From an uncultured Desulfobacteraceae bacterium (GTDB taxonomy: Bacteria; Desulfobacterota; Desulfobacteria; Desulfobacterales; BuS5), in the NCBI GenBank assembly GCA_964482535.1, contig CAYZXU010000002.1, positions 1 through 60,458 on the forward strand: DNA of 60,458 bases, in the 5' to 3' direction. The notes below the pieces were generated by a model, which saw only the letters and a program-made list of their open reading frames with translations, did not search any database and was not told the DNA's origin. The translations under genes were made by a program, and so were the position numbers. Positions 599 through 50,710 of this stretch are shown in pieces. Positions within the stretch are counted from its first letter, which is position 1. The number at the start of each line of letters is the position of its first letter.

Positions 599-783
599 GT
601 TTTACTGTCCATATAATAGGAGATGCTGAGAAAGATTTATATGAAATCTATAATTATGTCAGAAAATCGGACTTTCCGCTCAATGCCCAAAAAATATTTT
701 CACGGCTGAAACAGGCATGCCTCAGTCTTGCGGATAATCCGGAACGAGGGCATATTCCACCAGAGCTTGAAAGAATAGCGGCA
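595..783 (+). pseudogene. ParE/RelE-family toxin, 3'-truncated remnant
   Basis: The first ~62 codons (MSFTVHIIGDAEKDLYEIYNYVRKSDFPLNAQKIFSRLKQACLSLADNPERGHIPPELERIA) look like the N-terminal two thirds of a ParE toxin. The expected continuation (G-I-x-E-Y-R ... P-Y-R-I-I-Y ... H-G-x-R) is missing. The rest of the 104-codon ORF (to 909) is simply the antisense of the convergent HTH gene. Confidence 0.6.
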
Positions 784-1058
784 AGTTTTTTGGCAGTAGC
801 CAGGCTGATAGTTCTATTGCCACGTTCCATGTTGGAAATGATCTGGCGGGGAACTTTGCCTATTTTTTCGCCAAGTTGGGCCTGGGTCAGGTTATGGTTT
901 TTCCGGTAAATCCGCATTGCGTCGCCTGGGCTGGTTTGTGCTTTGATTTTTTTATACCAGTCCGTTTCAGTGGCTTCGACGTATTCGTCGTCTCCTTCAT
1001 AAATTTTCAATTCACCGCCATACTCCTTTACAAAAAAAATGCGCTGATAAAAGATCAT
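654..1058 (-). CDS. XRE-family helix-turn-helix protein (antitoxin-like); native 3' end apparently lost
   Basis: Residues ~43-96 (PGDAMRIYRKNHNLTQAQLGEKIGKVPRQIISNMERGNRTISLATAKKLAAIL) form a classical Cro/C1-type HTH. Recognisable similarity stops near nt 771. The remaining 38 codons (to 654) read through the antisense of the parE remnant. Confidence 0.55.
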   Translation of the reverse strand: MIFYQRIFFVKEYGGELKIYEGDDEYVEATETDWYKKIKAQTSPGDAMRIYRKNHNLTQAQLGEKIGKVPRQIISNMERGNRTISLATAKKLAAILSSSGGICPRSGLSARLRHACFSRENIFWALSGKSDFLT

Positions 1059-1096: not shown

Positions 1097-1840
1097 TTAT
1101 TTTTTTAAAAAGCGTACTTTACATTTCAAACCTGCAGAGAGTTTATATGAAGGATTGGAAAGTTTCAGCCGTACGCCGAAAGTTCCGCTTGCAGCATCTA
1201 CTATTTGGTCCACAATCACAGCTCTTACTTTATACACACCACCTACCGGTGATTCCGGGCGAACCTCCGCAAGCATATTTTTTTTTATTAAATTGATTAA
1301 TTCAACCGGAACATTCACTTCAACATACAGCGGATTTATTTCAGCAATAGTCATTATTGAATCATCACCAATATATTCTCCGGGGGAACCGGTGCGTTCC
1401 ACAACAATGCCGCTTATGGGACTTCTTATAGTACGCAGTGTAAGCCTTTCTAGTTCTTCCTGAAGCTGCAGTTCCATAATCTTCAATTCCGTTTCAAGCT
1501 CATCTTTATCATGAACCGATATTAGCTGTTTGTCATAAAGCTCTTTGTTTCGTTCAAGCTTTCTTTTGCCGAATTCAACACGTGCACCGGCAAGATTAAC
1601 CGCTGCAGTTTCAACACCTGATTTTAACCTTGCAAGCACCTGGCCTTTTCTTATTCTATCACCTCTTTCCACTGTAATTTCATCTAATATGCCGGGAACC
1701 TGACTGCTGACATTTACGACTTCGCTGGGTTCAATAATGCCGTCAATTTCCACAAATTCAGAATCTGCAAATGACACCAGAGCCGGGAGAAATAAAAATA
1801 AAATAAAATAGACTAAAATTTTCTTATACCGAACAATCAT
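1097..1840 (-). CDS. small membrane-fusion (HlyD/RND-adaptor family) periplasmic adaptor
   Basis: There is a signal-anchor (KKILVYFILFLFLPALVSFA). It is followed by a lipoyl-like motif (VSSQVPGILDEITVERGDRIRKGQVLARL), a short coiled-coil hairpin, SPISGIVVER, and a beta-barrel region. ATG 1840 has AGGAG (1848-1852) 7 nt upstream, and that SD overlaps the SecA-like TAG stop (1851-1853). ATG 1846 and the ORF-track start at 1885 are alternatives. Confidence 0.8.
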   Translation of the reverse strand: MIVRYKKILVYFILFLFLPALVSFADSEFVEIDGIIEPSEVVNVSSQVPGILDEITVERGDRIRKGQVLARLKSGVETAAVNLAGARVEFGKRKLERNKELYDKQLISVHDKDELETELKIMELQLQEELERLTLRTIRSPISGIVVERTGSPGEYIGDDSIMTIAEINPLYVEVNVPVELINLIKKNMLAEVRPESPVGGVYKVRAVIVDQIVDAASGTFGVRLKLSNPSYKLSAGLKCKVRFLKK

Positions 1841-1850
1841 TTTCATACTC

Positions 1851-3839
1851 CTATTCAGATCTACCGGAAAAAGACAGCATGTCACCGATTCTCTCCACCT
1901 GCTTAAATAAATGCTTTCTTATTTTTCCATGTTGTTTTTCAACCTTTTTTTGAGCATATATAATCGCAAATTTCCCGGCAAGTGTCCAGGCCGGAATCCT
2001 GAAACGCATCATTATAAGGGTGATAAAACTAAAAACCGAAAATTCCCTTTGAACCAGGTGATCCTCCATTGAGAGAAAAGGCTCAAAACTTCCGGGATCT
2101 CCCTGACGGGCGCAACGACCTTGAAGCTGCCTGTCAATACGGGCAGCATCATGTTTTTCTGTTAAAATTACGTGAAGACCCTTATTTTTTGCAACGCTTT
2201 TCTTTAGGATAATATCAGTTCCCCGGCCAGCCATGTTTGTGGCAATGGTAATACACCCGGGCTGCCCTGCTTCAGCAATAATATTTGCCTCTTCTTTATC
2301 CTGCCTTGCATTTAATACACGGTGTTTGATTCCTTCCCGGGCAAGAAGAAAACTGACACGCTCGGAAGCTGCAACGGAACGTGTTCCTGTTAGAACAGGT
2401 CTTCCATCGTTTTGCATTTGTTTAAGACGTTTTACTACAGCCTGCCACTTTAATTCTTCTGTTGGAAAAATTTTGTCACGATAACTGTCCCTGATCACAG
2501 GGCGGTTTGTGGGGATGCTGATAACCGGCAATTCATATACATGCCACAGCTCATTTTTAACCTCCATGGCTGTTCCAGTCATTCCAGACAGATTCAGATA
2601 CCGCCTGAAAAAACTCTGATAACTTATTTTGGATAGAGACTCCCGCTGTTTTGTCACTTCGCACCCTTCTTTTAATTCAATAAGCTGGTGCAGACCTTTT
2701 TCCCATGAACGGTCGGGCATTAATCTTCCTGTAAATTCATCAATAATATGAATTTTATTGTCCTGGATCAGGTAATGTTCATCCCTGTGGAAGAAATGCA
2801 AGGCTGTCAGGGCTTTTTGAATGATATCTTCTCTTCTTATGGTTCCGGTCCATAAATGCCCCAGGGCTTCGGTCTTTTCAATAATTAGAAGTTTTCCTTT
2901 TTTTGTAAGCTTAATCAGTTGCTGGGAACGATCAATGATATAGTCGGTTCCTTCAAGGATCTCACCGGCAATTGAAATAGCCTGTTCCATAAAAAGCTGC
3001 TCATCTTTTCCCCCTGATGTTCCTGAAATAATTAAAGGCGTTCTTGCTTCATCAATAAGAATACTGTCTGCCTCATCAACAATTGCAAAACAAAGACCTC
3101 TTTGAAGAAGACGACGGGATTTTGAGTTATTGCTGCAGATATTTTCAGCCTGCAAGTAAAGATGATGCCCTCTGTTTTCTAATGTTATCCTGTCCCTCAG
3201 ATAATCAAATACAACATCTTTATTGGTACAATAAGTAACATCACACTGATAAGCCTCTCTGCGTGCATCGGGCTCAAGTTCATGGGTAATGCAGCCGACT
3301 GTAAGGCCGAGAGCCCTGTAGACAGGCCCCATTGATTCGGCATCCCTTGCAGTAAGGTAATCGTTTATGCTGATAACATGAACAGGTATTCCGGCAAGTG
3401 CAGCGGTGCCTGCTGCAAGAGTTGCGGTAAGCGTTTTTCCTTCGCCGGTTGCCATTTCAGCTACCATTCCGTTCAAGAGAACCCATCCTCCAATAATCTG
3501 AACATTATAATGTTTCATATTGATTGTTCTGCCTGCGATTTCCCGGATTAAGGAAAAAGATTGTGCTGACAAATCTTCTTCAAATCCTTTTTTATGGAGT
3601 TCTAAACGCAGATCAGCAATCATGGTTTTCAACTGTTTGTCGGATTTTTTCATTAAACCGGATGAATATGCTTCCACAAGAGAAACAAAACGTTTGCGGT
3701 TTATGCCTCCGGAAGAAGAATAAACATAAAGTCCTTTTATTATTCCTGCAACCACATCAAAAGGACCTGATCGTTTACTTTTTTTTTCAGGACGAAAATT
3801 AACAGTGGCCGGAGGATATGAAGAGACAATGGTTTTCAT
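1851..3839 (-). CDS. SecA-family motor ATPase, C-terminally truncated paralogue (662 aa)
   Basis: Near-canonical SecA motor motifs are present: MATGEGKTL (GEGKT = 3432..3446), AIVDEADSILIDEARTPLIISG, HIIDEFTGRLMPDRSWEKGLHQLIELKEG, SYQSFFRRYLNLSGMTGTA, IPTNRP, ATNMAGRGTDI, RIDRQLQGRCARQGDPG and LSMEDHL. The protein ends 17 residues after AQKKVEKQHGKIRKHLF, which corresponds to the start of the SecA helical scaffold. The wing domain, two-helix finger and Zn-binding tail are therefore absent. Confidence 0.85.
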   Translation of the reverse strand: MKTIVSSYPPATVNFRPEKKSKRSGPFDVVAGIIKGLYVYSSSGGINRKRFVSLVEAYSSGLMKKSDKQLKTMIADLRLELHKKGFEEDLSAQSFSLIREIAGRTINMKHYNVQIIGGWVLLNGMVAEMATGEGKTLTATLAAGTAALAGIPVHVISINDYLTARDAESMGPVYRALGLTVGCITHELEPDARREAYQCDVTYCTNKDVVFDYLRDRITLENRGHHLYLQAENICSNNSKSRRLLQRGLCFAIVDEADSILIDEARTPLIISGTSGGKDEQLFMEQAISIAGEILEGTDYIIDRSQQLIKLTKKGKLLIIEKTEALGHLWTGTIRREDIIQKALTALHFFHRDEHYLIQDNKIHIIDEFTGRLMPDRSWEKGLHQLIELKEGCEVTKQRESLSKISYQSFFRRYLNLSGMTGTAMEVKNELWHVYELPVISIPTNRPVIRDSYRDKIFPTEELKWQAVVKRLKQMQNDGRPVLTGTRSVAASERVSFLLAREGIKHRVLNARQDKEEANIIAEAGQPGCITIATNMAGRGTDIILKKSVAKNKGLHVILTEKHDAARIDRQLQGRCARQGDPGSFEPFLSMEDHLVQREFSVFSFITLIMMRFRIPAWTLAGKFAIIYAQKKVEKQHGKIRKHLFKQVERIGDMLSFSGRSE

Positions 3840-3844
3840 AATAA

Positions 3845-5998
3845 TTAAATATTGAATTTATTAAGAAGCAGACGACGGAAATCCCGATACCACCGAAAAA
3901 CAAGGGGTTCCGGTTCGTGTTCAAAACGCACATACACCCTTTCGCCGACTCTGTTAACGAAAACACCTTCCAATTCTATTTCTATTTGAAATAATCTTTC
4001 AAATGCCTTTGGTTTATTATTTTGTCTTGGATCGAGAACAATATCGCCTCCGCCTTCTGAACTGAACGCCATGCTTGGCAGATCTTCAGAAGCTGCGGGC
4101 ACCACTCTTTTTATTGTTGATGGAATAATTTTTTTCATATTACCGGCGAGTCTTGATTCTACTTTTATAGAACTTTGAAACACCCTGTCCGCTTTGGTCT
4201 GGGATATGATAACAAGTGCGGTAGCATCATCCGAATCATTTATAACAAACCCTAATTGTTCGCCTCTTTGAATAAAACGTCCTGGGAGATCCTGAGAAGA
4301 CATGGGCAATAAAAATATTCCGTCTTTAGGACTGTAAATCGTCAATTCCCCGCTTCGTTCCATTGCCCTTTTTAATTCCGCATTTACCCTTTTTATTTCA
4401 TCATTTAAAATGTCCGCCTCAGTTCTGTTTTCTATCATGCTTTTCATATGCATCAACTTCAATTCTAAAAGTTTGGCCTTTAATTTTTTGACCCGGACAA
4501 CAAGTTCAAGATTTTCACAGATGATAAGGGGAGCGCCTGCTTTGACTTTTTCACCGGAAACGGCAGCAACCTCTTTAATAAACCCACTGGTTTTTATGTG
4601 GATTCTGGATTGTTCAGGCGGCCATAATACTCCCTGGGCATCAGTAATATAGCTCATGGGAACAATAATGAACAGGGGAGGAATCAAAAGACAAACAGTA
4701 AACAGGATTATTTTTAAAATGCGTTTTTGTTTTTTTTTAAAGCTGTAATTCATAATAAGATATTTGACACCCCTGAATGCCGGCATGACCAGCATGGTGA
4801 ATCCGCACCATAACGCAAGCAGGATCCCGATTAAAAAAAATTTGCCGGCAACCATTATGATGATTCTTATGGAGATAAAGATTCTGTATATGAATGCCGC
4901 AACACCGTATATCCCCATTAATAATGCTTCGCCTTTTGCGGTTGCCGGAGATTGAGCAGCTTTATCTTCAAGTAGATAGCGGCGTAAAAGATAACCGATA
5001 TACTGATTGCTGCGGGTTCCCATATTGGGGATTTCCAGATAATCCGAAAGAACATAATATGCATCAAACCGAAGAAGAGGATTCCCATTGAACAGCAGGG
5101 TGGAAATACTTGCTACAAGAATAATGTTATAAGTAATTGCGCGAATATTTCCAGGCTCAATATTTACCCATATTATTAAAGCAAGGGCTGCAATAAAAAG
5201 TTCGCATAAAATACCTGCTGCACCTACCAGCATGCGTTTTTTTTTGTCGGAAAATGCAATGGAAGCTGATGCATCCATATAGGGTATAGGCATAAAAACA
5301 AGCAGCATAATACCCATAACATGAACTTCACCACCCCATTTTTTTACGGCATAGGCATGGGCAAATTCATGAAAAAGTTTTAAAACAGGGTATACAAACC
5401 AGAGCAGCATTAAATTTTGTGCGCTTAAAGCCCTGTCAATGATATTCAAAGTAAGATCATTCCAGTGTACCATTAGAATTGATAGAGCATACAAAACAAT
5501 GGTCAACCAGATTATTGCCCCTGAAATACTGAAAACACTTTTCCCGATTAAGGCGGTTTTGTTTAAAAACCTGTCAGGATCAAAAATCGGCAACTGTATA
5601 CTTACCGGCGATTTCAGTATATTCATCATCCCTTTTCGTTTTTCCTGCTTAAAACGATAGTGAAGATTCGCAATATCGGAAGGCAGATCGGATTGTATGG
5701 CATCTACACTGTGAAGCTGGGAAAGCAGATTTATAACTTCGTCCTGGGTAGGCATATCGTCACCAAGATGTTCACATGCCTGTTCCCATATCCGGTTAAG
5801 AGTATTTTTGCCATCCATAAAACCGATGATATAATAGGCTTCCGGTGAAAAACGATGAAATTTTCCCGTGGAATTATCCTGAAGAATATACCAGTCTTCA
5901 TCGCGGTACGTGTGGCGATGAATTTTAACATGGCTGCGTAATATCGGTTTAATCGATTCAACACGGTACCATGACTGGCTGAAAAGCGTTTCGCTCAT
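3845..5998 (-). CDS. PqqD-like domain - M50/site-2-protease-like polytopic metalloprotease - HlyD fusion (717 aa)
   Basis: Residues ~15-100 show a PqqD/RRE-like pattern (KPILRSHVKIHRHTYRDEDWYILQDNSTGKFHRFSPEAYYIIGFMDGKNTLNRIWEQ...). Several hydrophobic TM segments follow. The HExxH motif is HEFAH at 5357..5371, within a hydrophobic stretch, and the second S2P motif is NGNPLLRFDAYY (aa 304-315). A last TM (ILFTVCLLIPPLFIIVPM) precedes a ~250-aa MFP-type region (VSGEKVKAGAPLIICENLEL ... KLKAKLLELKLMHMKS ... ELTIYSPKDGIFLLP). Confidence 0.8.
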   Translation of the reverse strand: MSETLFSQSWYRVESIKPILRSHVKIHRHTYRDEDWYILQDNSTGKFHRFSPEAYYIIGFMDGKNTLNRIWEQACEHLGDDMPTQDEVINLLSQLHSVDAIQSDLPSDIANLHYRFKQEKRKGMMNILKSPVSIQLPIFDPDRFLNKTALIGKSVFSISGAIIWLTIVLYALSILMVHWNDLTLNIIDRALSAQNLMLLWFVYPVLKLFHEFAHAYAVKKWGGEVHVMGIMLLVFMPIPYMDASASIAFSDKKKRMLVGAAGILCELFIAALALIIWVNIEPGNIRAITYNIILVASISTLLFNGNPLLRFDAYYVLSDYLEIPNMGTRSNQYIGYLLRRYLLEDKAAQSPATAKGEALLMGIYGVAAFIYRIFISIRIIIMVAGKFFLIGILLALWCGFTMLVMPAFRGVKYLIMNYSFKKKQKRILKIILFTVCLLIPPLFIIVPMSYITDAQGVLWPPEQSRIHIKTSGFIKEVAAVSGEKVKAGAPLIICENLELVVRVKKLKAKLLELKLMHMKSMIENRTEADILNDEIKRVNAELKRAMERSGELTIYSPKDGIFLLPMSSQDLPGRFIQRGEQLGFVINDSDDATALVIISQTKADRVFQSSIKVESRLAGNMKKIIPSTIKRVVPAASEDLPSMAFSSEGGGDIVLDPRQNNKPKAFERLFQIEIELEGVFVNRVGERVYVRFEHEPEPLVFRWYRDFRRLLLNKFNI

Positions 5999-6028
5999 TA
6001 TATTATTTTTTCCCCTTTGAGCGAGCCC

Positions 6029-7885
6029 TTATGGAAGCCATGACCATGTCCAAAGGATAAACCATTCTCTAAGATCTTTTGTCCAGATACCTATTAGTTT
6101 TCGCCTGTCCACATATATCTTGCCGACACCTTCCATGCCCGGTCTGAGCGGGGTGGAATCGGATTCGATTCGTGCCTCAACCCGGAAACTGTTTTGCCCT
6201 TCTTCTGCTATTGTTATGGGGGTAATTTTACTGACTTTAAAATTAAAATGTTTTTCAGGAAAAGAAAAAAGGAGAAGAGTTCCGGACTGGTTTTCCTTAA
6301 TATCGGAAATGCGTTTTTCATCAATTTTTAAAATAATTCTGTATGAATCAAGTGGCGCGATTTCAAAAAGCATCTCCCCTTGCTGCACAGGTCCGCCAAA
6401 CTTCTGGGAAAGATCTCCAGAAACAAGTATTCCCTTAAAAGGCGCTTTTATTAAAGTTCGTGCAAGCTGATTTTCGACAAGTTCAAGTTCTGCATCTGTC
6501 TGCTTAATACGAGCATTGATAATATTAACTTCAGCCCGATTATGATCGGCAAGAGCTTCCTGGTGTTTACTTTTTAATTGTGATTTTTCACTTAACAGGC
6601 TTATGCGTTCTAATCTCAGGTCCCTGTCATCAAGGACGCACAGCACTGTGTTTTTGTTTACAATATCCCCTGCGCGAAAGCTGGATTCTTCCACAAAACC
6701 GTTAAAGGGAGCAGCAACAATACGACGAATTTCTCCTTCAAGGACAGCATCGGCTGAAATTCTGTAATCTCCGTTTTTATAACCAAAAAAAACAATTAAA
6801 CATATAAGCATGGTAACAAAAATTTTTCTCCCGGGATATCCTGTCCCTGTCAAGCGGATGATCTGATTTTTTAATGATTCTTTTATTTTTAAAAAAAGGT
6901 GACGATCATTTTTTCGTTTATCTTCAAGGGCCGGACCTGCAAGAGAAATAACGCCGGTGCAAAATTCCAGATCAACTTCGGTAAATGGAAATTCATGAGG
7001 ACGTTCAAGTGTTAATGCTCCAAAATAGCAATCGTTTCCGAACAGGGGAATAGTTAAAATTGATCCTGAACCATGCCCTTTGGAAAGCAGGTCATGGTCA
7101 CGTATTATTATGGCGCTTTTCTCGTCCTGATAGTCGGGAAAAATAATTTCCCGGCGTTGAACAACAGCTTCATCCATTGCTTTTTCAATATCACGAATAA
7201 GATTCATTCGCTCGCCGAATTTGGAACTGTGGGACAGCGCCTGAATCCGCATTCTGTTTTTTTTTACAAACCCGATGCTTACCCTGTCACATTTCAGTTG
7301 CGTAGCAAGTTTTGTAACAAAAGCCATTGCAGATCCTTCAAACCTGTCTTCCGCAAAAGCTTCCGCAAGAAGTGTAACAGCAGATGTTAATCGACCAAGA
7401 GCCGCTTCTTCTTCCCTGGAACGTTCCCTGCGAAATAAAAGCTCCAGCCAGGAAATACCCCATTGAAGCTGTTCCATTGCATATTTTAATTCTTCTTCCG
7501 TTCTGGCGGATATTTCAACAGCCACAGAGCCGAAAAGTTCCAGGTCAACCAATACAGGATATCCAAGACCAAAATTAGAAGAGGAATCATTATCCAGCTC
7601 AATCAAAAGGCCGCAACGTTTTTCAAGCACTCTTTCCAATAAATCGGCAAGCTGTTTGGGATCACCTCCCTTTTCAGGCCATTTTGATACTGGTTCATAG
7701 GATTTTTTTGATTCCGGACTCCCAATAACCAGTACGCTGGAAACAATATTCGGGATCAGAAGAGACTGAAGAGCTAACCAGTTATGAAAATATTCATCCC
7801 TGTTTTGGGTTTTAGAAAATCTGCTCCATATTTCTGAAAAACCATCTTTCTTATTTTCTACACTGATTGCTGATTTTTGATCCAT
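6029..7885 (-). CDS. tandem GAF-like sensor - TM - HlyD/MFP fusion (619 aa)
   Basis: ATG 7885 has GGGG (7894-7897) 8 nt upstream; the ORF-track start at 7951 adds 22 weakly supported codons. The cytoplasmic half has two GAF-like halves; the second one (MAFVTKLATQLKCDRVSIGFVKK ... GSILTIPLFGNDCYFGALTLERPHEFPFTEVDLEF) is clear. One TM (IFVTMLICLIVFFGY) follows, then HlyD-type lipoyl, coiled-coil and barrel regions (APFNGFVEESSFRAGDIVNKNTVLCVLDD ... LIKAPFKGILVSGD). Confidence 0.75.
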   Translation of the reverse strand: MDQKSAISVENKKDGFSEIWSRFSKTQNRDEYFHNWLALQSLLIPNIVSSVLVIGSPESKKSYEPVSKWPEKGGDPKQLADLLERVLEKRCGLLIELDNDSSSNFGLGYPVLVDLELFGSVAVEISARTEEELKYAMEQLQWGISWLELLFRRERSREEEAALGRLTSAVTLLAEAFAEDRFEGSAMAFVTKLATQLKCDRVSIGFVKKNRMRIQALSHSSKFGERMNLIRDIEKAMDEAVVQRREIIFPDYQDEKSAIIIRDHDLLSKGHGSGSILTIPLFGNDCYFGALTLERPHEFPFTEVDLEFCTGVISLAGPALEDKRKNDRHLFLKIKESLKNQIIRLTGTGYPGRKIFVTMLICLIVFFGYKNGDYRISADAVLEGEIRRIVAAPFNGFVEESSFRAGDIVNKNTVLCVLDDRDLRLERISLLSEKSQLKSKHQEALADHNRAEVNIINARIKQTDAELELVENQLARTLIKAPFKGILVSGDLSQKFGGPVQQGEMLFEIAPLDSYRIILKIDEKRISDIKENQSGTLLLFSFPEKHFNFKVSKITPITIAEEGQNSFRVEARIESDSTPLRPGMEGVGKIYVDRRKLIGIWTKDLREWFILWTWSWLP

Positions 7886-8140
7886 AAAATATTCCCCAAA
7901 AAGTAATTTATACCTTTCCCTGCTAAGCCAGAAAAAAAACTTATCACACACGCTATGGGAATGTAAACCATATCGTTTGCTATGTAAATCAGCTATTTTG
8001 GAAAGCTATTGACACTTAGTTATTAAACGGTTTATTATATAAAGGTTATTTTTTTTCTGTCTTTCACTTCTTTTTTTTTATGATAAATTCAAAATTTTAA
8101 TAGATAATAATATATTTAGCAAAAAAGGAATTATTGCCTG
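7886..8140. promoter_or_regulatory. divergent control region between the GAF-HlyD operon and tolC/giant gene
   Basis: This is a 255-bp AT-rich non-coding gap between divergent starts at 7885 (-) and 8141 (+). GCTAT occurs four times (7952, 7979, 7992, 8005), the last three at 13-bp spacing. ATGTAAA occurs twice, 21 bp apart (7961, 7982). A TATAAA -10-like hexamer on the minus strand lies at 7907-7912. T8 and T9 tracts lie at 8049-8056 and 8071-8079. Confidence 0.5.
8009..8038 (+). promoter_or_regulatory. candidate sigma70-type promoter for tolC and the giant gene
   Basis: TTGACA (8009-8014), an 18-nt spacer, then TATTAT (8033-8038), about 100 nt upstream of ATG 8141. This is a pattern match only. 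Confidence 0.35.
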
Positions 8141-9526
8141 ATGAAGTCAAAAATTAAGCTTTTGCCATATGGAATGGTCTGGTTGACTAAACTATTATCA
8201 AGTAAAATATTTTTGTCTACTTTCGTTGTTTTAATTTTATTTTCAAGCCGGAGTTTATATGCAGAAGATTTAATGTTTTTTTATAATAGCGCCAGGGAAT
8301 TTGATGCTCAATTTTCAAAGGCAAAGTATGATAAGGCTGCCTCCCGTGAAATTATAAAACAGGCATATTCAAGACTTTTTCCCACATTAACCCTTAATGC
8401 CGAACATACTAATACAAAAGATGATATAAAAAGCAGTGACAATACTGTTTATGGTTCAGGGGTTGCCCATTATCCTTCCGACAGTTATACGCTTGCCCTT
8501 GTTCAGCCGATTTTCAATTTTTCATACATAATGGGTGTAATAAAAGCAAAGGAAGAAATCCGGCGTTCCGATGTTGAATATGTTAATGCCCGGCAGGAGA
8601 TAATCATCCGGGTTGCGGAAAATTATTTTAATACTTTGTCTGCAAAAGATAATTATGAATTTTATAAATCAGAACTTGCAGCAGTTGAACAGCATTATAA
8701 TCTTGCTAAGGTTCAACTGGATAATGGTCAGATACCTGTAACGGATATGCTGGATGCCAGGGCAAGATCGGCGACTGTTTTTGCAGATATGATAAAATCG
8801 GAAAATGAACTGGATGATGCCCGTGAGGCGCTTTATGTTGTAAGCGGGCAAAAGGATATTAAACTATCCGGCATACAAACCAATGCATCACTGGCTGCTC
8901 TTGAGCCGGCAGATTATGATTCATGGATGCAAATCGCTCTTGAAAAAAATCTGGAAATTATAATAGAAAAACATGAAGTTGAAATTGCAAAGCGCGAAAT
9001 TAAACGCTTAAAGGCAGATCATTTTCCGGTTTTAAATTTAGAGCTCAGGGATGAATGGAGCGATGTGGACGGTTCCCTTTTTGGCGGTGGCAGTGAAGTT
9101 GAAACACAAGAGATTGCTTTTCAATTGAGCTTTCCTATTTTTAAGGGCGGTTTTGTAAGTTCCCAGGTTCGGGAAGCATTACAACTGCATAAGGCTGCAA
9201 AAGAGGAACTGCGAAATAAAACACTGCTGGTTAAGAGAAAAACCCGCTCAACATATCTTGGTGTAAAAAGTGCGATTATCAGAGCAAATGCATATGAAAA
9301 ATCCGTTGAAGCACAGAAACTGACCCTTGAAGCAAAACAGCAAGGTTTTAAATCCGGTCTGTTTACCAGCCTTGATGTGCTGGACGCGGAAAGAGATCTA
9401 TATGAGGCGAAACGGGATTATACCAAGGCAAGGTATGATTATATTACCAATATCTTAAATCTTAAATTCAGTGTCGGTACATTGACGGAAGAAGATATTG
9501 CCAAGGTAAATACATGGCTGGATTAA
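8141..9526 (+). CDS. TolC-family outer-membrane channel protein
   Basis: 461 aa. A signal-peptide-like N-terminus ends ...SRSLYA/EDL. The protein has a two-fold internal repeat of long helical segments typical of the TolC/OEP family (ASREIIKQAYSRLFPTLTLNAEHT; RQEIIIRVAENYFNTLSAKDNYEF; ALEKNLEIIIEKHEVEIAKREIKRLKADHFPVLNLEL; LDVLDAERDLYEAKRDYTKARYDYITNILNLKFSVGTL). Confidence 0.85.
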   Translation: MKSKIKLLPYGMVWLTKLLSSKIFLSTFVVLILFSSRSLYAEDLMFFYNSAREFDAQFSKAKYDKAASREIIKQAYSRLFPTLTLNAEHTNTKDDIKSSDNTVYGSGVAHYPSDSYTLALVQPIFNFSYIMGVIKAKEEIRRSDVEYVNARQEIIIRVAENYFNTLSAKDNYEFYKSELAAVEQHYNLAKVQLDNGQIPVTDMLDARARSATVFADMIKSENELDDAREALYVVSGQKDIKLSGIQTNASLAALEPADYDSWMQIALEKNLEIIIEKHEVEIAKREIKRLKADHFPVLNLELRDEWSDVDGSLFGGGSEVETQEIAFQLSFPIFKGGFVSSQVREALQLHKAAKEELRNKTLLVKRKTRSTYLGVKSAIIRANAYEKSVEAQKLTLEAKQQGFKSGLFTSLDVLDAERDLYEAKRDYTKARYDYITNILNLKFSVGTLTEEDIAKVNTWLD

Positions 9527-9546
9527 ACTTGATTTAGTTTGGATAA

Positions 9547-12500
9547 ATGTTTCTCAGGGGGAAACTTGTGTTTTACAAATTAAAAAAAATTGCGAAAAAA
9601 AGAAAAGAGAGCCGCAGGAACAAGCCCAGGGATTTTCAAACAAAAAGGCGCAGGATAAGATTTGAAGCCTTGGAAGACAGAATTCTTCTGTCGGCAGATA
9701 TTCCTATTATAGCCTATGACCTTGCATCTGATACAGCCTTGCCTGCTTTTGCAGAACAGGAACAATTGTTTCATGAAGAAACTCCTGCCCCGCAAATTCA
9801 ATTTGAACCTGAATCCATGGCAGATCAGATTGAAAACATTGGTAAAGAAGAGAATGTTCAACCGGATTATCAGGATAATATTAATGAAGATTATCTTGAG
9901 GATCAGTTTCAAATATCATCAGCCACCCAGGCAACTGTTAATTTTTATCCGGAAAACCCGGAAGAACAGGTTGAAAAAATCAATGAAGTTGAGAATGCCG
10001 AACCCCTGAAGGCAGATCTGCAGTTCGTTGATAATATCTATCCGAAGTACACAGAGGAAGGAATACTTGCATCTGAAATCATAGCCCGCCATCAAGTTCG
10101 TGAGATAATAATTGTTGATTCATCCGTTCCTGATTACCATGGCCTGGTTAAAGAGATAACTGCCGTTGACAGCGAAAGCGACCATACAGATGCAGGTAAT
10201 GATAACACATCCCCCGACATTTTTTCTTCTATCACGTCTTCTATTCAGGAGCATGAAACATTACAAACCGGAGAACCTATCCACAGCAGTTCGGAAAAAA
10301 CAGAGATAAGCCCTGAACGCGGCATATTTGTTCTTGATTCCGGACGTGATGGATTTGAGCAGATAACTGAAATATTAAAAAAATATAAAGACGTTGGCGC
10401 TGTTCATATAATATCCCATGGATCAGCAGGATTAATACGTCTTGGCTCAGGTAAGATTGATAAAGAAGATCTGGAACAAAACAGAGCCATAATTAAAGAC
10501 TGGGGCAAGGCTTTGACCCCTGACGGAGATATCCTTGTTTATGGATGCAGCGTGGCTCAGGGGAAAACCGGTATCGAATTTGTTGAAAGCCTGGGCAATT
10601 TAACAGGCGCTGATGTCGCTGCATCTGATGATGCTACGGGAAGTTCTGACCGTGAGGGCGACTGGATGCTGGAGTACAGCACCGGTATTATTGAAAGTAA
10701 GCCTCTTTTTGGGAGTACACCGGACTATAGCTATTTGCTGGAAGATATTATTGGAACGGATGATAACGATACTTTATCTGGCAATAGTGAACAGGATGAT
10801 ACGCTGACCGGCGGCGCCGGGGATGACACCTACGTATTTCAGGACAATTGGGGAGACGATACTGTTGTTGAGAATATTGATGAGGGAGTGGACATTCTTG
10901 ATTTTTCTAATATAATAACGGATCTCACCTTCACCCTGCATGACGATGGAACCGTTTCTGTAACAGACGGCACCAATATTATCAACAACGCTGCCGGTAT
11001 AGAAAAATTGGTTGGCGGCAGCGGCCATGACACCCTCGTGGGTCCTGATGGGGGAGCTATCTGGAATCTGACAGGGGACAACACGGGAATTGTCAATGGT
11101 TTCATATTCAGCGGCATTGAGGACTTGAAGGGTTCTGCCACCGGACAGGACACTTTTATAGTCGAAAATAAGGCCAAATGGTTAGGGATTATCGACGGCG
11201 GTGGTGGAACGGATATACTCGATTTAACACCTGTTGCCGATAATTTGATTTTTACGATTCAAGACAGTGGAATCGTTTCTGTCAACACTGCCCCGGATAC
11301 CTGGTCTTCTCTCGGCATTATCCCTGAAGATGTTCTTTCACTCCTGAGTGACGGTCTGGAAATAGATAGTGTCAAGAATGTCGCCAAACTGGTCGGAGGA
11401 AGCGCAGACAATACTTTTGCCTTCGAGGACAATGCCTCCTTCGCGGGAACCGTCGACGGTAGTACGGGTATTACAAACACTCTGGACTACTCGGCTTTTA
11501 CCGATGATGTCAATGTGAATTTTGCAAACAGTACTGCCACGGCAACACTCGGGATCAATAATATGAACCGGGTCGTGGGTGAAAAAGACAAGCTGACTGT
11601 CACCTGCACCGATGCAGGAGAAGAGACCATATCTTTTTCTAACGACAAAGGTGTGATAGCGAGTGCTTTAAGCTGGGTCGGGCTGGATAATATCGAAGGT
11701 ACGCCCGGCAACGATGTGCTTACAGGTAATGACGGTTTCAACATTATTGTCGGAAAGTCAGGAGATGATCTCCTGATGGGCGAAGGCGGCCCTGACACGT
11801 ATAAGTTCGCTGATGGCTGGGGTGCCGATACTATCATGGATAGCGGTGGAATTGATATTCTGGATTTCACCATGTGTACGGCGGATCTAACGTTTACCAT
11901 ACACAATGACGGCACGGTCAGCGTAACTGACGGCACCAATAAAGTATTTGCCACTGATGACATTGAAGTGTTTATCGACGGTCTGGGCAACGACAAATTC
12001 GTTTTTGAAGACGGCGCGACCTTTGACGGAATAATCGGAAAACCCAACTGGCTGCAGAAGCTGCTTGGTACCAGTTTGATAGATTATGGATCCAATACTA
12101 TGGATCTGTCTGCATACACAACACCGGTTTACGTAGATCTGGGCATGAAAATTCCATATCTGGAACAGATCCTCTTTCAGCATGCATGGCAAACCGATGC
12201 CGGTGATCCAATAGTTAATACTTTTCATAACATATCCAATGTCATAGGCGGTTCTGCGGGCGATTTTATCTGGGGCAGTTCTGAAGCCAATATTTTAAAG
12301 GGAGGCGCCGGTGATGATGTGATTTTCGGCCGGGGCGGCGCTGATACGTTTTATGGCGGTACAGGTAACGATACCTTGTATGGCGGAATGGGCATGGATG
12401 ACCTGATGACTGTTATCGGTCTGCTTAAAGACCCTGCTGCCATAGCGGATCAATTCCTTGCTTCAGCCCCGGAACTTTTAATGTACATTGCTGACGGGGG

Positions 12501-15500
12501 CACAATCCAGAGTTACATCATGAACCTCATTGCCGGTGATGAGAATGTTGTATCTTACGCTGATGCAACATCTGCCGTAACCGTAGACCTGGGTCTGACT
12601 CTGGATCCGGATGACCTGGCAGGCTTTTTGCCTTATAGTACCGGTGGTGCAGGTAATGATACAATTATTGATATCCACAACGTTACAGGATCCCAATATG
12701 ATGATATCCTGAAGGGTAATTTGTTTGATAATACCATTAAGGGCGGCGTGGGTGACGATGAAATTTACGGCGGCCTGGGATCGGATACCATCATCGGCGG
12801 AAAGGGTGACGATACACTGGACGGCGGTGATTTGGGTGACGACATCAATCCGCTGGGCGACAGGGATATAGCTTCATACATTGACGCGGGAGCCGGAGTT
12901 ATGGTTGACCTGGGTATCAATGGGGTCCAGGACACCAGACGATGGGAGATCTTGCCCCACGTCAATGATGCGGTCGGCGGTCTGGTTGAGGGGCGGGATT
13001 ATGAAGTTGTATATGTAACAGATGACACGTTCAGTCTTAAGAGCCGGAGTGGTGGTGATATTGATATCACGCTCTCTCCACCAGGCGGTACCCATAGCTT
13101 TGATAAGGATGGAGTAATAAAATCCTTTACCCCTTCTGATGACCTGATGGACTATGATGGCAATATTTTTACCATCAACGGACATGGATTCAGTAACGGT
13201 GACATAGTTACATATGCTGCAGGCGGTGAAAAAATCTATACCAGCACAGGGATGGGTCACGACACCCTGATCAACATGGAGGGCGTCACCGGTTCCAATT
13301 ATGACGACGTCCTGATCGGTACTGATGGGTATAACATCATTAAAGGCGGCGCTGGAAATGACTTTCTGGTCAGTGGAAAAGGGTATGATATTGTTAGCGG
13401 TGGAGTGGGCATAGATACGATTTCCTATGAAGACGCTGATGCTATGGTATTTGTTAACCTTTGGGACCCACTACCGCAGATTACCGGGGGCTCGGATGTT
13501 GATACCCTGAAAGATATCGAAAACGTCATCGGGTCGGATTATGACGATATCCTCATCGGCAGCTTCGGGAACAACCTTCTTGAGGGTGGATTCGGTGATG
13601 ACATACTGTCAGGAACTATGGGAGCAGATATTTACAAGTTCCGGGACGGCTGGGGAGACGATACGGTTATAGACGACATCGAGAGCTTGATAGACTATAT
13701 CGATGGAAACGTGGATGCCGCAGATTATATCCAGAACGGGCTTGCCATAGCCAGTGAATGGCTGTCCAATGCTGTAGACACTGTTGATGTCCTGGAAATC
13801 CTGAATGATGCCGAAGAAAAGTCAGCCGAACATATTCCCGACACCCTGGATTTCACACAAACAACCGCTGACCTTTCGGTCAATATCCGTGGTTTTGGCG
13901 ATGTGCATGTGGGATACGGCGCAAACCAGACAAATGATATTTCCGAGATGGAAGTGATTTTGACCGGCGGCGGCAGTGATACATTCATCTTTGGAGTTAA
14001 TCCTCTCACAGGCGATCCGGAATCCTTTAACGGTAAAATCGATGGCGGAAGTGTGAATTACGCCAAATATCCGGATGCTCTTCCTGATGTGAACACTCTT
14101 GATTATTCAGCCAATGCCAAATCCGTTGTTGTGGATCTTGAAGCCCCGGAAGACGGATCACCGGGAGAAGCTCAGGGAACAAAAGGTGTTTATAACATAC
14201 ACAATGTTATCGGCGGTGACGGTGATGATACTTTGAAGGGATCTGCAGGAAATAATCTGCTGCTTGGCGGAAAAGGCAATGACCTGATCGAAGGCAGCGG
14301 CGGTGACGATGTCCTTGAAGGCGGTGCAGGAAACGACACTCTGATCGGTGGTGAAGGCTTCGATATGGTCTCCTATGTGACCTATGATAATAGCGTTGAT
14401 GACACGGGGATCTCCATTGATCTGGGCCTGGTAGACGGGGAGCAGGATACTGTTGGGGCTGGATTAGATATTTTAAAGAGTATCGAGGGTGCGGTCGGAT
14501 CGAAGCATGATGACACTCTCACTGGAGATGATCAGGACAATATGCTGATCGGCGGCAAGGGTGCTGATACCATTTACGGCATGGCCGGTAACGATTTGAT
14601 CTCCGGTGATGCGGACAACGATACCCTGTTCGGCGGTGCCGGTGACGATACCATCGAGGGCGGTGCCGGTGATGATTTCATGAACGCCGGTGCCGGTAAC
14701 GACACGGCATCCTACATTTATCCGGGAACGGCGGTGGATGTTGATCTGGCTATAACTGCCCTGCAGGATACCGGCGGCGCGGGAGAGGACACCCTTCGCA
14801 GCTTTGAGAATCTTATCGGTTCCAAAGGTGACGATACGCTCCGGGGCAATGATGAGGATAATGTTCTGACCGGCGGCGCCGGCGGCGACACCATTTACGG
14901 CAGGGACGGTAACGATCTTATCGTCGGTGAAGCGGGCGATGACATTCTCTACGGTGGTCTTGGGGATGATATCCTCAGCGGCGGCCAGGGGGATGATATT
15001 ATCGACGGGTATATCCAGGGCGGGGATCCGGCCGACGACCATGACATTGATACCGTTTCCTATGCGGAAGCGGCAAGCGGTGTGGTCATCAACCTGAACA
15101 TATCGGGACAAGCCCAGGACACCGAGGCTCTGGGCATAGACACCCTGCAGAATGTGGAAGGGGTCATGGGGTCCGATTATGATGATATCCTCACCGGCAA
15201 TGCCAGGGACAATATTCTTCTGGGACAGTCAGGTGATGATATTATCGAGGGTGGCCAGGGTGATGATATTATGTTCGGAGGCGAAGGTTTTGATTTTGTT
15301 TCCTATTCACTGTCCGACACGCCCGTATTTGTTGACCTGAGCATTACCTGGGAGCAGGAAACAGGAGACTCCACCGGCTGGGATGAGATTGCCGGCATCG
15401 AAGGTCTTATCGGATCGGACTATAATGATGTACTGACCGGCAATGAAGAGAAAAATGTCCTCATGGGAGGGCTGGGCGAAGACGAACTGGACGGCGGTGC

Positions 15501-18500
15501 GGGTGCGGACACGGCCTCTTACGAGAATGCCCTTGCACAGGTGACCGCAGATTTGAGTGGGTTGACGGCAAACACCGGTGAAGCCTGGGGCGATATTTTC
15601 TTTGGCATCGAAAACCTTATCGGCTCGAATTTCGACGATATACTCATTGGGGACTCGAAAGACAATATTATATCTGGCGGCATTGGGGCGGATATCCTGA
15701 TGGGCGGCGCCGGTGTGGATATTCTCAGGGGTGAGGAAGGCGACGATGCCCTCTACGGCGAGGACGGAGACGACATCCTCGTGGGCGGAGCAGGAGCGGA
15801 CAGTTATGACGGCGGCGGCGGTGATAATACCGCCTCCTACAGGAACGCGGCGGATGACAATGTGGGTGAAGACACCACCGGCATTACCGTGGATATGAAC
15901 AACTACAACCTGAACACCGGTGAAGCCTTTGGCGACACATTTGCCAATATCCAAAATATCGAAGGTTCCGGCGGAGACGACATCCTCATTGCAGATAATA
16001 CAGGTGTCAAACTCTTCGGTCTCGCAGGAGACGATAAACTCACCGGCGGGACGGGCAATGACGAACTTACCGGGGGTACAGGGGACGATACCCTTCAGGG
16101 GGGCGTCGGCGATGACTTGCTTCAGGGCGGAGACGGGGCGGATGCGCTGTTTGGATACATGCAGGATGGAAATGTTGACGATGATACCGGCACGGATACC
16201 GCCACCTACGCAGGCGCGGGATCCGGCGTAACCGTTGATTTGAGTAAGAAGACCGGTTCGGATGATGTTGCCGAAGGGGACACGCTGGAAGGGATAGAGA
16301 ACCTTATCGGTTCAGATTATGACGATGAACTGACCGGTGACGATAAAGACAACCGGCTCCAAGGCGGTATCGGAAACGATATCCTGACAGGCAAAGAGGG
16401 CGATGATATCCTGGATGGCGGCGACGGCGGCGATTTTGCCTCATTCGCGAACTCGTTGCGGGGTGTGACCATAGACCTTGCGCTCACGACCCCTCAGGCC
16501 AATGGTGAAGAGGGAAGCGATACTCTCATTAGTATAGAGAACCTTGTGGGTTCCACACGCAATGACACTCTTATTGGAAACGATAATGACAATATTCTTG
16601 TAGGCGGTGAGGGTGAAGATACACTAAAAGGTCTTGCCGGTGATGATATCCTTTTGGGCGAAGAAGATTCTGATTATTTGGAGGGTGGTGAAGGTGATGA
16701 CATTCTGGACGGCGGGGACTGGGGTGACATCCTTATGGGAGGAGAAGGCATTGACACCGCAACCTATGCGGATGCCCAAAACGGTGTTACCGTAAACCTG
16801 CTTACCGGTATAGGCGGTGGGGACGAGGCCGATGGTGATACGCTTACGGGTATTGAAAACCTGGTCGGCTCTAAATTCGACGACACGCTCATCGGAGATA
16901 CGCTCGGCAATATCCTCAATGGCGGCTCAGGGGACGATACCATTGACGGTGGGGCAGGGGACGACTTCCTTGAAGGCGGTGAAGGGGATGACACCATCAC
17001 GGGCGGAGATCACGGCACAGAAGGCGATACTGTTTCTTACCAGGGCGATACGGCGGCGGTCAATGTGGAACTGGGCGGCGTCGCCCTTGATGGCTCCGGC
17101 GGTACAGATAGCCTGGAAGGTATTGAAAATATCTATGGTTCAGTCCACGATGATACCCTCGTAGGCGATGCGGACAACAATATTCTCTGGGGGAACGAAG
17201 GCTCCGACAATCTGGACGGCAGTGAAGGGGACGACGTACTGTATGGCGGATTCGGCGATGACACGCTGACCGGCGGAGAAGGCGGAGACACATTCATGTT
17301 TGAGGACAGTTGGGGCGTGGATACTGTGTCCGAAATTGATGACGCTTCAATAAATACCCTTGATTTTTCCCTTGCCATTGCTGACCTGACAGTAATCGTT
17401 CATGCGGATGGAACAGTATCAGCCTATGATAGTGTTAGCAAACTGGAAAATGTATCTCATATATCAAGAATAATCGGTGGACAGGGTAATGACCATTTCT
17501 TCATTGAGCAAAATTCAACCAACCTCCCGTTTCTCGATGGCGGCCCGGACGGGTCTGACACGTTGGATTACTCTGATTATACGACAGATCTGAATATTGA
17601 CCTTTTAAATATCAGCATCAATCCCACCGGAACATCCGGGGTCTTAAACATTGAGAATATTATCGGAGGATCAGGTGACGATACCCTGACAGCAGGCGAT
17701 AGCGATAGCATTCTCAATGGCGGCCTGGGAGATGATCATCTTATCGGAGGGGCAGGCAGCGACATGCTGCTCGGTGGTGAGGGCACGGATATCCTGGAAG
17801 GCGGAGCAGGTGATGACACCCTCGACGGCGGCAAAGAAGGCGACCAACTCTACGGGTATTTCAGTACTTCACTTCCCGGTGATGATACCGGATCGGATAC
17901 CGCCTCCTACTATACCTATCAGATGGACGAGGACTGGAATGGTCTTACGGTTGATCTCACAAATCCGGATGAGTCCACTAAAGATGCCCTGGGTGATACA
18001 TTCTCGGGCATAGAGAATATTACCGGATCAATGGGTGCGGATATCCTGGTTGGTAATGCCGAAACCAATATCCTTGCCGGAATGGACGGCAACGATACCC
18101 TCATCGGTATGGGCGGTGACGATGTGATGGATGGCGGCATCGGCTGGGATATGGTTTCCTATGAGGATTATGTTAATGCAACTGGTGGCGTCGATGTCGA
18201 TTTGAGACGTACCAATGGTTCTGATGCTGTTGTTACCGGAGCTTCCGGAATTATCAGCAGGGATTCACTTGTCAGTGTTGAAGATGTAACTGGTACCCAT
18301 TATGACGATATAATCACAGGTGATTTGTTTAGCAACATTCTCATGGGTGGTGACGGGAATGATATCATCAGGGGCATGAGCGGTAATGATACCATTTATG
18401 GCGGTGATGGCGATGATACGATCTATGGCGGCGAAGATTCCGACACCCTGATTGGCGGAGCAGGAGCCGATGATCTTTATGGATATATCGAAGGAGGTGA

Positions 18501-50361: not shown

Positions 50362-50700
50362 ATGACTGAAAAAATTGATAAAAAAAAACAGACAGACATT
50401 AAAGCAGAAGACAATGATGCCGGCAAAACAAAAATCAAGTGGGATGGATCAAAAATGGTCAGCAATTATGCCAATGTCTGCAATGTTACAAGCACAAGAG
50501 AAGAGTTTACAATGCTGTTTGGAACAAATCAGAGCTGGAATGCCGCCCAAACAGAACTTGTTGTTGAGTTAACCAATCGTTTAATCATGAATCCCTATGC
50601 AGCCAAACGTTTATCCATGATACTTGGCGGGGTTGTTAAAGAATATGAATCAAGGTTTGGTTCTCTTGAAATTAATGCTGGAGACGCGCCAAATAAATAA
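50362..50700 (+). CDS. DUF3467-family small protein
   Basis: 112 aa with AGAGGA 8 nt upstream of the ATG. YANVCNVTSTREEFTMLFG ... NRLIMNPYAAKRLSMILGGVVKEYESRFGSLEI fits the DUF3467 pattern (Y-x-N ... T-x-x-EF-x-x-x-F ... R-x-x-x-x-P-x-x-AKRL ... YE-x-x-FG-x-I). Confidence 0.65.
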   Translation: MTEKIDKKKQTDIKAEDNDAGKTKIKWDGSKMVSNYANVCNVTSTREEFTMLFGTNQSWNAAQTELVVELTNRLIMNPYAAKRLSMILGGVVKEYESRFGSLEINAGDAPNK

Positions 50701-50710
50701 GGGTTTTATC

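Follow-up and report, generated by a model that had tools for sequence, protein, structure and literature searches.

The 60,458-nt stretch analysed here (the window; contig CAYZXU010000002.1 of assembly GCA_964482535.1, from an uncultured Desulfobacteraceae bacterium) raises the question of how a giant protein may leave the cell when its locus encodes a TolC protein, three periplasmic adaptors of the membrane fusion protein type (MFP) and a SecA-like ATPase, and no ATP-binding cassette (ABC) transporter. To our knowledge, the ABC-driven type I route is the only one known to carry proteins of 5,000 to >13,000 residues over two membranes. We found that seven genes of the window constitute a module that is conserved across hundreds of species. 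They are tolC, the cargo gene and the genes for a DUF3467 protein, a GAF-MFP, an M50-MFP with an N-domain resembling a recognition element (RRE) of ribosomally synthesised and post-translationally modified peptides (RiPPs), a truncated SecA and a small MFP. All functional statements below are inferred from gene content, conservation and synteny. On these grounds, it seems rather probable that the genes of the window specify a self-contained, ABC-less export apparatus that depends on TolC and is dedicated to the LEPR-XLL/DUF4347/RTX giant next to it. A broader proposal, to which we give slightly less than even weight, is that the module represents a new and widespread secretion class with members in at least 500 species of Desulfobacterota, Proteobacteria, Nitrospirota and other phyla. 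Here, the ABC transporter would be replaced by a SecA-derived motor and a leader-recognising, MFP-fused M50 protease, and TolC-dependent export would be signalled from the cargo N-terminus and possibly proceed N-terminus first.

Four of the genes form an operon on the minus strand. The GAF-MFP gene is the first (6029..7885; 618 aa from the ATG at 7885), followed by the M50-MFP gene (3845..5998; 717 aa, with a PqqD-like N-domain, a core similar to M50/site-2 protease (S2P) and a periplasmic MFP part), the SecA-like gene (1851..3839; 662 aa), and the gene of the small adaptor, also an MFP (1097..1840; 247 aa), which is the last. Counted from the adaptor gene, the gaps are 10, 5 and 30 nt, and the SecA-like gene ends in a TAG that shares bases with a GGAG located 6 nt 5' of the adaptor ATG. 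An AT-rich divergent control region of 255 bp (7886..8140) lies between the operon and tolC (8141..9526, plus strand; 461 aa). The cargo gene (9547..50262, plus strand; 13,571 codons) starts 20 nt after tolC, and the DUF3467 gene (50362..50700, plus strand; 112 aa) is located directly 3' of it. The coordinates of the open reading frames (ORFs), the gaps, the divergent region and the tolC-giant pair given by the sequence-only reading were all reproduced from the ORF map, as was the overlap of the adaptor Shine-Dalgarno sequence with the SecA-like stop codon. The SecA, GAF, MFP, TolC and LEPR-XLL assignments, which had been left to profile searches, were recovered with Pfam and NCBIfam. Six genes of the module had been described correctly, but the seventh, that of DUF3467, had been overlooked; likewise, the range proposed for the system, 1097-9699, covered the operon and tolC but took in only the leader of the cargo.

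The TolC-family outer-membrane factor scored 294 bits against type_I_sec_TolC (TIGR01844, cut-off 225.15) and 211 bits against Pfam OEP. The three MFP-type domains reached 26-39 bits against type_I_hlyD (TIGR01843, cut-off 208.65); the small adaptor passed RND_mfp instead (TIGR01730, 123 bits vs a cut-off of 94.9) and matched HlyD_D23, HlyD_3 and Biotin_lipoyl_2 in Pfam. Its N-terminus is hydrophobic and contains the signal or anchor sequence MKMIVRYKKILVYFILFLFLPALVSFA. No ABC protein was detected in the window by Pfam on all large ORFs or by a scan of all ORFs for Walker A and LSGGQ, which bears out the earlier statement that none of them looks like an ABC ATPase or permease. As the locus has no dedicated ABC transporter of the HlyB/LapB type, the module is not a type I system by membership.

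The gene arrangement recurs far beyond the window. The initial pattern came from the neighbourhoods of three SecA-like homologues, one of them in the complete genome of Desulfoluna limicola, where a 9,009-aa giant is followed by DUF3467, GAF-MFP, M50-MFP, SecA-like and the adaptor. In the same genome (AP024488; L001:12819-14096), a group II intron-type reverse transcriptase gene (RVT_1 and GIIM) is situated between the SecA-like and adaptor genes. A scan of one genome per species with the M50-MFP alignment returned relatives in at least 508 species, and the best 80 loci were inspected. They were mapped with hidden Markov models, built from the window proteins, on stop-to-stop ORFs, and most of them are contigs of metagenome-assembled genomes. 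The 80 loci span Desulfobacterota, Gamma- and Betaproteobacteria, Nitrospirota, Latescibacterota, Rokubacteria, Deferribacteres and others, and the order in them is nearly invariant: giant RTX protein, DUF3467, GAF-MFP, M50-MFP, SecA-like, small MFP. The GAF-MFP gene was directly 5' of the M50-MFP gene in 76 of the 80 loci and the SecA-like gene 3' of it in 75, most of the five loci in which the latter is missing being truncated contigs; the adaptor was found in 65. In 40 of the 64 loci having enough upstream sequence, the DUF3467 gene has the cargo and GAF-MFP genes as its immediate neighbours, and this position assigns it to the module. The commonest order was DUF3467, GAF-MFP, M50-MFP, SecA-like and adaptor (n = 31), and a betaproteobacterial variant reads cargo, adaptor, TolC, GAF-MFP, M50-MFP, SecA-like. 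The module was not described in the full-text literature that we searched, the coverage of which is incomplete, and NCBIfam release 20 holds no dedicated models for its proteins.

Upstream, the module typically adjoins the gene of a very large RTX protein. In 37 of the 47 loci for which 3 kb or more of upstream sequence was available, an ORF of 700 aa or longer on the same strand ended just 5' of the module. Where at least 7 kb was available, 28 of 36 loci showed an ORF of 1,500 aa or more that remained open to the end of the retrieved DNA, and most of the large upstream ORFs contained RTX motifs. In several of the exceptions the large ORF is divergent, as in the window, and tolC is divergent in L023 and L056. 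Across the loci, tolC is placed either 5' of the cargo gene or at the end of the operon; it is immediately 5' of the cargo gene in L084, L085, L086, L087 and L023, and L084 to L086 contain the nearest homologues of the cargo N-terminus. Since tolC adjoins the 5' end of the cargo gene, it seldom lies within 10 kb of the M50-MFP gene. ABC signatures were scarce: a strict test found them in 3 of the 80 related loci (±10 kb), and a second Walker A pattern, applied to all stop-to-stop ORFs, in only two ORFs of 84 loci. Each of these few ORFs is either small or separated from the operon by more than 3 kb. The co-occurrence predicted earlier, namely that the module genes adjoin a very large RTX protein and that ABC ATPases are essentially lacking within ±10 kb, therefore holds for the best 80 loci. 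We also approached the module in reverse, from the cargo N-terminus, for which the protein matches were partial products of less than 730 aa. Among the six neighbourhoods obtained, tolC was 5' of the cargo gene in the four loci L084 to L087 listed above, and a SecA-less module was present in L089.

The cargo itself begins with a basic stretch and the leader FEALEDRILLSAD (aa 39-51, nt 9661-9699), after which comes an acidic linker. The leader scored 25.9 bits against LEPR-8K (NF012209, cut-off 17) over residues 38-55. Adjacent cargoes with a visible N-terminus number five (in the window, L023, L054, L062 and L072), and all of them open with the same arrangement, a basic stretch and FExLEPRxLLSAD. 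Two of these cargoes are much shorter than that of the window, with 1,700 aa in L072 and 797 aa in L062 (Nitrospira lenta); the latter length means that the SecA-like protein is not confined to giant cargoes. The leader is conserved in 42 N-terminal homologues, with a median motif start at residue 24 and a preceding net charge of typically +5 to +11, and it has no hydrophobic core of Sec-signal length.

The DUF4347 domain comes next (aa 254-390, nt 10306-10716; 165 bits). Its predicted fold (domain pLDDT > 90) is caspase/legumain-like, with Foldseek E-values of 1e-4 to 1e-3 and a probability of ~1, and the top match is Tce1, an effector of the P. aeruginosa type VI secretion system. The His-Gly and Gly-Cys pairs (H291-G292 and G333-C334 in the window) are invariant. 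DUF4347 is probably a cysteine peptidase domain of the clan-CD-like kind, as judged from the model, and may serve for autoprocessing at the cargo N-terminus. It is reminiscent of the autoprocessing domain of MARTX toxins. The RTX block, as detected by Pfam, occupies ~aa 500-3,500, with only 3-4 repeats near the C-terminus, and is followed by ~9,000 aa of Gly/Ala/Ser/Thr-rich repeats that have no Pfam match.

The chain ends with the motif AAAGYLGW...RRFMYW (aa 13517-13557, nt 50095-50217). In general form (G-W/F, 8-60 residues, R/K-x(0-3)-W), this motif was present in 21 of 39 related tails vs 4.2 ± 1.8 in shuffled sequences, and in none of 39 internal control segments. A fuller version reads AG(L/F)xGW, ~25 residues, a basic stretch and R(F/Y)xRW. 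The motif may serve as a signal, as an anchor or for binding a partner. On sequence grounds, both ends of the cargo appear to carry conserved signals specific to this system.

The cytoplasmic N-domain of the M50-MFP is highly conserved, much of it being invariant in the family. This domain gave 19.2 bits against Pfam PqqD (cut-off 23.4; E = 0.0015; model positions 2-65 of 67) and E = 0.0027 against SCM_PqqD_rel. The best profile match of the M50 part was the NCBIfam daptide_HExxH model (E = 9e-40, residues 20-407), with a score of 137 vs an equivalog cut-off of 300. The Pfam scores for Peptidase_M50 (21.8 bits, cut-off 27.2) and HlyD_D23 (21.9 bits) were sub-threshold. The protein has 7-8 predicted hydrophobic segments that carry the metalloprotease motifs HEFAH (at 210) and NGNPLLRFD (304-312), of which HExxH and NPxxxxD are invariant in the family. 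The closest PDB match of the periplasmic part is MacA, and the profile match to the S2P structure 3b4r had E = 3.4. The family comprises 4,047 cluster representatives (50% identity, E ≤ 1e-30), nearly all of ~715 aa. The earlier PqqD-like and M50 assignments of this protein are backed by the invariant protease motifs and the daptide match, although the Pfam matches to PqqD, M50 and HlyD_D23 all remain sub-threshold.

The likeness of the M50 part to RiPP leader metalloproteases (daptide_HExxH, YydH/LiaK) is what would be expected if the four-gene operon exported a small RiPP or bacteriocin peptide and stood beside the giant gene by chance, as the sequence-only reading had allowed. Nevertheless, the operon adjoins a very large RTX ORF time and again, in Desulfobacterota, Gamma- and Betaproteobacteria, Nitrospirota, Latescibacterota and others, and the LEPR leader is on every adjacent cargo N-terminus that is visible. 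Moreover, no conserved small precursor gene was seen in these loci save that of DUF3467, which is a folded protein of 105-120 aa. The recurrent synteny, together with the 5' tolC and the leader of the adjacent cargoes, leads us to reject coincidence with a peptide exporter, which we consider extremely improbable.

The motor candidate is the SecA-like protein. It matched SecA_DEAD (336 bits), SecA_PP_bind (86 bits) and P-loop_SecA (184 bits) in Pfam, and the same scan gave no match to the SecA wing/scaffold. It aligns to residues 24-601 of the 841 residues of B. subtilis SecA. According to this alignment, it retains the first nucleotide-binding domain (NBD1), the preprotein cross-linking domain, NBD2 and the start of the scaffold helix, and is devoid of the wing domain, the two-helix finger and the C-terminal tail. 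The motifs GEGKT, DEAD, TGTA, GRGTD and RxxGRxxRQGDPG (the arginine-finger motif) are invariant across 41 homologues. All NCBIfam scores were below the cut-offs, both for SecA (NF009538, 611 vs 814; TIGR00963, 602 vs 800) and for SecA2 (TIGR04397, 541 vs 1085; TIGR03714, 474 vs 930; TIGR04221, 457 vs 725; NF012136, 394 vs 1100), and neither the window nor the related loci contained SecY2/Asp genes. The scores and the domain content alike place the protein outside SecA and SecA2. The family is tight, the best 120 matches sharing 52-94% identity and nearly all having ~664 aa. Relatives found independently in genomes and metagenomes also adjoin M50/GAF genes; the metagenome scan with the SecA-like protein returned only five loci, which fit the pattern and add little. 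We must also note that in Betaproteobacteria bacterium SG8_40 (L074:2895-6254) the M50-MFP and the SecA-like protein are read in one frame of 1,120 aa, cut by the contig end. We did not use it as evidence of a fusion: the MFP C-terminus is expected to be periplasmic and its last residues deviate from the family consensus, so a stop codon was probably lost or a frameshift introduced in the metagenome-assembled genome.

An ATPase of the SecA family with a preprotein-binding domain could also work in the conventional way. In such a two-step export, the SecA-like protein would drive the cargo through SecYEG into the periplasm, and the MFP/TolC part would expel it from there, as MacAB-TolC does with the enterotoxin STII, with the M50 domain as leader peptidase. 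The MacA-like periplasmic part of the M50-MFP agrees with this scheme, as does the periplasmic build-up of giant/RTX symbiosis proteins before export that was reported for Chlorochromatium (bioRxiv 10.64898/2026.03.19.712371). However, the two-helix finger, the wing and the C-terminal tail, which the SecA-like protein lacks, are the parts with which canonical SecA works at SecY, SecB and the membrane, and the leader has no hydrophobic core of Sec length. A chain of 13,571 residues with an RTX block would, in addition, need to stay unfolded in the periplasm. We therefore regard export in two steps as distinctly unlikely.

The GAF-MFP consists of a cytoplasmic GAF domain (38 bits, residues 189-317), one transmembrane segment and a periplasmic MFP domain (HlyD_3, 65 bits; HlyD_D23, 50 bits). 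The N-terminal 180 aa had no Pfam match; of the GAF-GAF-TM-HlyD layout assigned earlier, the second GAF domain was thus undetectable by Pfam, and the rest was found. The DUF3467 protein scored 77 bits against its Pfam model (cut-off 25). It is cytoplasmic, and its AlphaFold2 model (pLDDT 74) has four strands and one long helix. It may act as a chaperone, a role suggested purely by the position of its gene. A relationship to SecB was considered and rejected, as hhalign against E. coli SecB gave a probability of 0.3% and Foldseek of the model against the PDB gave no match with E < 1; the likeness is limited to the order of secondary structure elements, four strands and then a long helix. We make no claim for an association of DUF3467 with the C-terminal motif of the cargo (Fisher p = 0.12 with the strict pattern), as the motif also occurs in loci devoid of DUF3467. 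In L006 (276-5301), DUF3467 domains are found inside larger proteins (~219 and 423 aa, stop-to-stop) encoded on the opposite strand, 5' of the GAF-MFP gene.

Taken as a whole, the interpretation of the sequence-only reading, in which the SecA-like motor and the M50-MFP replace the ABC component, gained partial support from the co-occurrence with giant RTX cargo, the lack of a linked ABC gene, the tolC gene 5' of the cargo gene and the leader on all five visible cargo N-termini. We propose the following mechanism, in which export takes place in one step. The three MFP-type proteins, two of which would be anchored in the inner membrane, may form a periplasmic tunnel to TolC, with the cytoplasmic domains of the two anchored MFPs acting as an entry platform. 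The PqqD-like N-domain of the M50-MFP would bind the cargo leader in the way that RiPP recognition elements bind leader peptides, and the M50 domain would cut the leader off during transport, analogously to the C39 domain of peptidase-containing ABC exporters. The SecA-like protein may have lost the parts that couple SecA to SecY, i.e. the two-helix finger, the wing and the C-terminal tail, and kept the polypeptide clamp. It would feed the unfolded giant chain to the platform, thereby taking over the energising role of the ABC transporter of type I secretion. DUF3467 could be a cargo-specific cytoplasmic accessory or holding factor, and the GAF domain might link export to a small-molecule signal.

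Several observations weigh against this mechanism. The Pfam matches to PqqD and M50 fall under their gathering scores. S2P-type domains are not known to act as protein-conducting channels. The few C-terminal RTX repeats and the conserved C-terminal motif of the cargo fit equally well a C-terminal signal as in classical type I secretion. The absence of ABC genes concerns the 60-kb window and the linked DNA, and an unlinked ABC transporter may exist elsewhere in the genome. No M50-MFP gene was seen within ~10 kb on either side of the LEPR/DUF4347 genes in L087 and L088, although the L088 contig ends downstream; in L088 (Pirellulales), no module genes at all were seen around the cargo homologue. 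Finally, there are modules without the SecA-like protein. In P. aeruginosa (GCA_001374135.1, CUXY01000076.1; L089:5711-16500), the adaptor, a 439-aa MFP, a 699-aa M50-MFP and an outer-membrane factor accompany a DUF4347 cargo with the LEPR leader, called as 572 + 1014 aa, and both the SecA-like protein and DUF3467 are missing; L006 has no SecA-like gene either. Such variants indicate that the ATPase is not universally required. In consequence, the M50-MFP, and not the SecA-like protein, is the invariant inner-membrane partner, and the SecA-like protein may be an accessory motor. Judged by the genes present, the invariant core consists of the cargo leader, the M50-MFP, further MFPs and the outer-membrane factor, while the SecA-like protein and DUF3467 mark a large subfamily that includes the window. 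With IS110 and rve transposase genes and a GmrSD-like gene on its flanks, the P. aeruginosa locus is probably an accessory island.

Some of these points would also be accounted for if a classical type I ABC transporter and MFP, encoded elsewhere, exported the giant, and the module were a device for its processing, retention or release. Intramembrane proteolysis by the M50 domain and the GAF sensor would then control maturation or shedding of the giant, tethered to the cell surface, like LapG/LapD in the case of LapA, and the SecA-like protein would be an unfoldase or holdase. The RTX repeats of the cargo, the C-terminal motif common to many cargoes, the SecA-less variants and the presence of a GAF sensor domain are all compatible with such a role, and S2P proteases are generally known as regulatory proteases and not as channels. 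On the other hand, type I ABC and MFP genes usually adjoin the genes of giant adhesins, yet no linked ABC gene was found in ~80 species. A dedicated TolC and three MFP-type proteins would be needless for a purely proteolytic regulator, and the SecA-like protein retains the preprotein-binding clamp. We therefore consider export through an unlinked ABC transporter rather unlikely.

The ABC-less export proposed here can be compared with known systems. Similarly to type I secretion (HlyB-HlyD-TolC; LapB-LapC-LapE), the module has a TolC that scores above the type_I_sec_TolC cut-off, MFP adaptors and a very large RTX cargo encoded adjacently, and one continuous conduit across both membranes is presumed. 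In contrast to type I, an ABC transporter is absent from the locus in ~80 species and the linked ATPase belongs to the SecA family. Rather than one MFP there are three different ones, of which two carry fused cytoplasmic or membrane domains (GAF; RRE-like and M50). The cargo has a conserved N-terminal LEPR-XLL leader, with the bulk of the RTX repeats near the N-terminus in the window, and a DUF3467 protein belongs to the module. The module shares with MacAB-TolC and other tripartite pumps the tripartite logic, the MacA-like periplasmic part of the M50-MFP and a small adaptor that passes RND_mfp. It differs in its inner-membrane engine, which is neither ABC, resistance-nodulation-division (RND) nor major facilitator superfamily (MFS); the engine families named in a Chem Rev 2021 review of tripartite systems are ABC, RND and MFS only (PMC8277102).

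With SecA and SecA2, the SecA-like protein has in common a DEAD-type motor with NBD1, the preprotein cross-linking domain, NBD2 and all ATPase motifs. It is unlike them in staying under every NCBIfam cut-off and in lacking the two-helix finger, the wing and the C-terminal tail. Unlike SecA2, it has no SecY2/Asp partners, its conserved neighbours being the MFPs, the M50 protein and TolC. The nearest precedent of a wing-less SecA motor tied to giants is found in the giant proteins of Omnitrophota and Actinobacteria, which have SecA DEAD and preprotein-binding domains in cis, without wing/scaffold, and for which self-export has been proposed (bioRxiv 10.1101/2023.11.21.568195). The SecA-like protein resembles the Omnitrophota domains in being devoid of wing/scaffold and associated with a giant protein; it is, however, a free-standing protein of 662 aa and not a domain of the cargo. 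Giants of Chlorochromatium with an adjacent TolC-like gene and without known transport signals have been reported as well; one recently acquired secA was mentioned by the authors, who did not draw a link (bioRxiv 10.64898/2026.03.19.712371).

For the coupling of a protease to an exporter, the nearest functional analogy would be the peptidase-containing ABC transporters of RiPPs and bacteriocins. As in the RiPP exporters and proteases (C39 ABC; daptide protease NF041824; YydH/LiaK NF058609), the substrate has an N-terminal leader and the protease is joined to the export machinery; the daptide intramembrane metalloprotease is the best profile match of the M50 part, and the PqqD-like N-domain is sub-threshold. 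Contrary to these systems, the substrate of the module is a protein of 800 to >13,000 residues instead of a peptide, an MFP domain rather than an ABC transporter is the fusion partner of the protease, and the daptide score of 137 is far from the equivalog cut-off of 300.

Hundreds of species have the module next to giant proteins, Nitrospira, sulfate reducers and sulfur-oxidising symbionts among them, and it also occurs on a P. aeruginosa island. Should the module prove to be an exporter, TolC-dependent systems would gain an inner-membrane engine of a fourth kind. The module would also provide a function for the LEPR-XLL leader, for DUF3467 and for the 664-aa SecA paralogues annotated as 'preprotein translocase subunit SecA', and would tie in with the unexplained SecA domains within Omnitrophota giants. 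The proposed class, if real, would explain how LEPR-XLL and 'Planctomycete extracellular' proteins exit the cell. At the level of annotation, these SecA-like genes now bear the name of the housekeeping SecA. The proposal is directly testable in Desulfoluna limicola ASN36, which is cultured, has a complete genome and contains the module (L001/L004). Two further complete genomes with the module are OY762430 and OZ252100.

The control region between the operon and tolC contains two sigma-70-like sites, identified by consensus match only: one on the plus strand at 8009-8038 (TTGACA-18-TATTAT, 11/12 match) and one on the minus strand at 8063-8034 (10/12 match). At the left side of the window, beyond the adaptor gene, there are a Phd/YefM antitoxin gene (284-598) and, after it, a ParE-like ORF (595-909). 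The latter matched the ParE model over its N-terminal half only and is probably degenerate; an HTH/HipB-like ORF (654-1058, minus strand) overlaps it in antisense orientation. On the right side, 3' of the DUF3467 gene, there are a Cys-rich ORF of 204 aa with no family match (50708-51322) and genes for an XerD-like tyrosine recombinase (51362-52273), a PfaD-like enoyl reductase (52356-54005) and a PfaA-like polyunsaturated fatty acid/polyketide synthase, which starts at 54083 and runs off the window end.

The G+C content of the giant gene is 46-55% vs 35-41% in the flanking genes, an excess that stems at least in part from a protein rich in Gly (12%), Ala (10%) and Asp (10%), and the GC skew on the plus strand is strongly positive across the gene (9547-50262). 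Lastly, a 3,005-nt metagenome contig from JGI, Ga0190313_1012751 (L090:2-1033), is 100% identical to the SecA-like protein of the window in the best tblastn segment (query aa 319-662). It also carries an adaptor gene, and probably comes from the same or a nearly identical organism.

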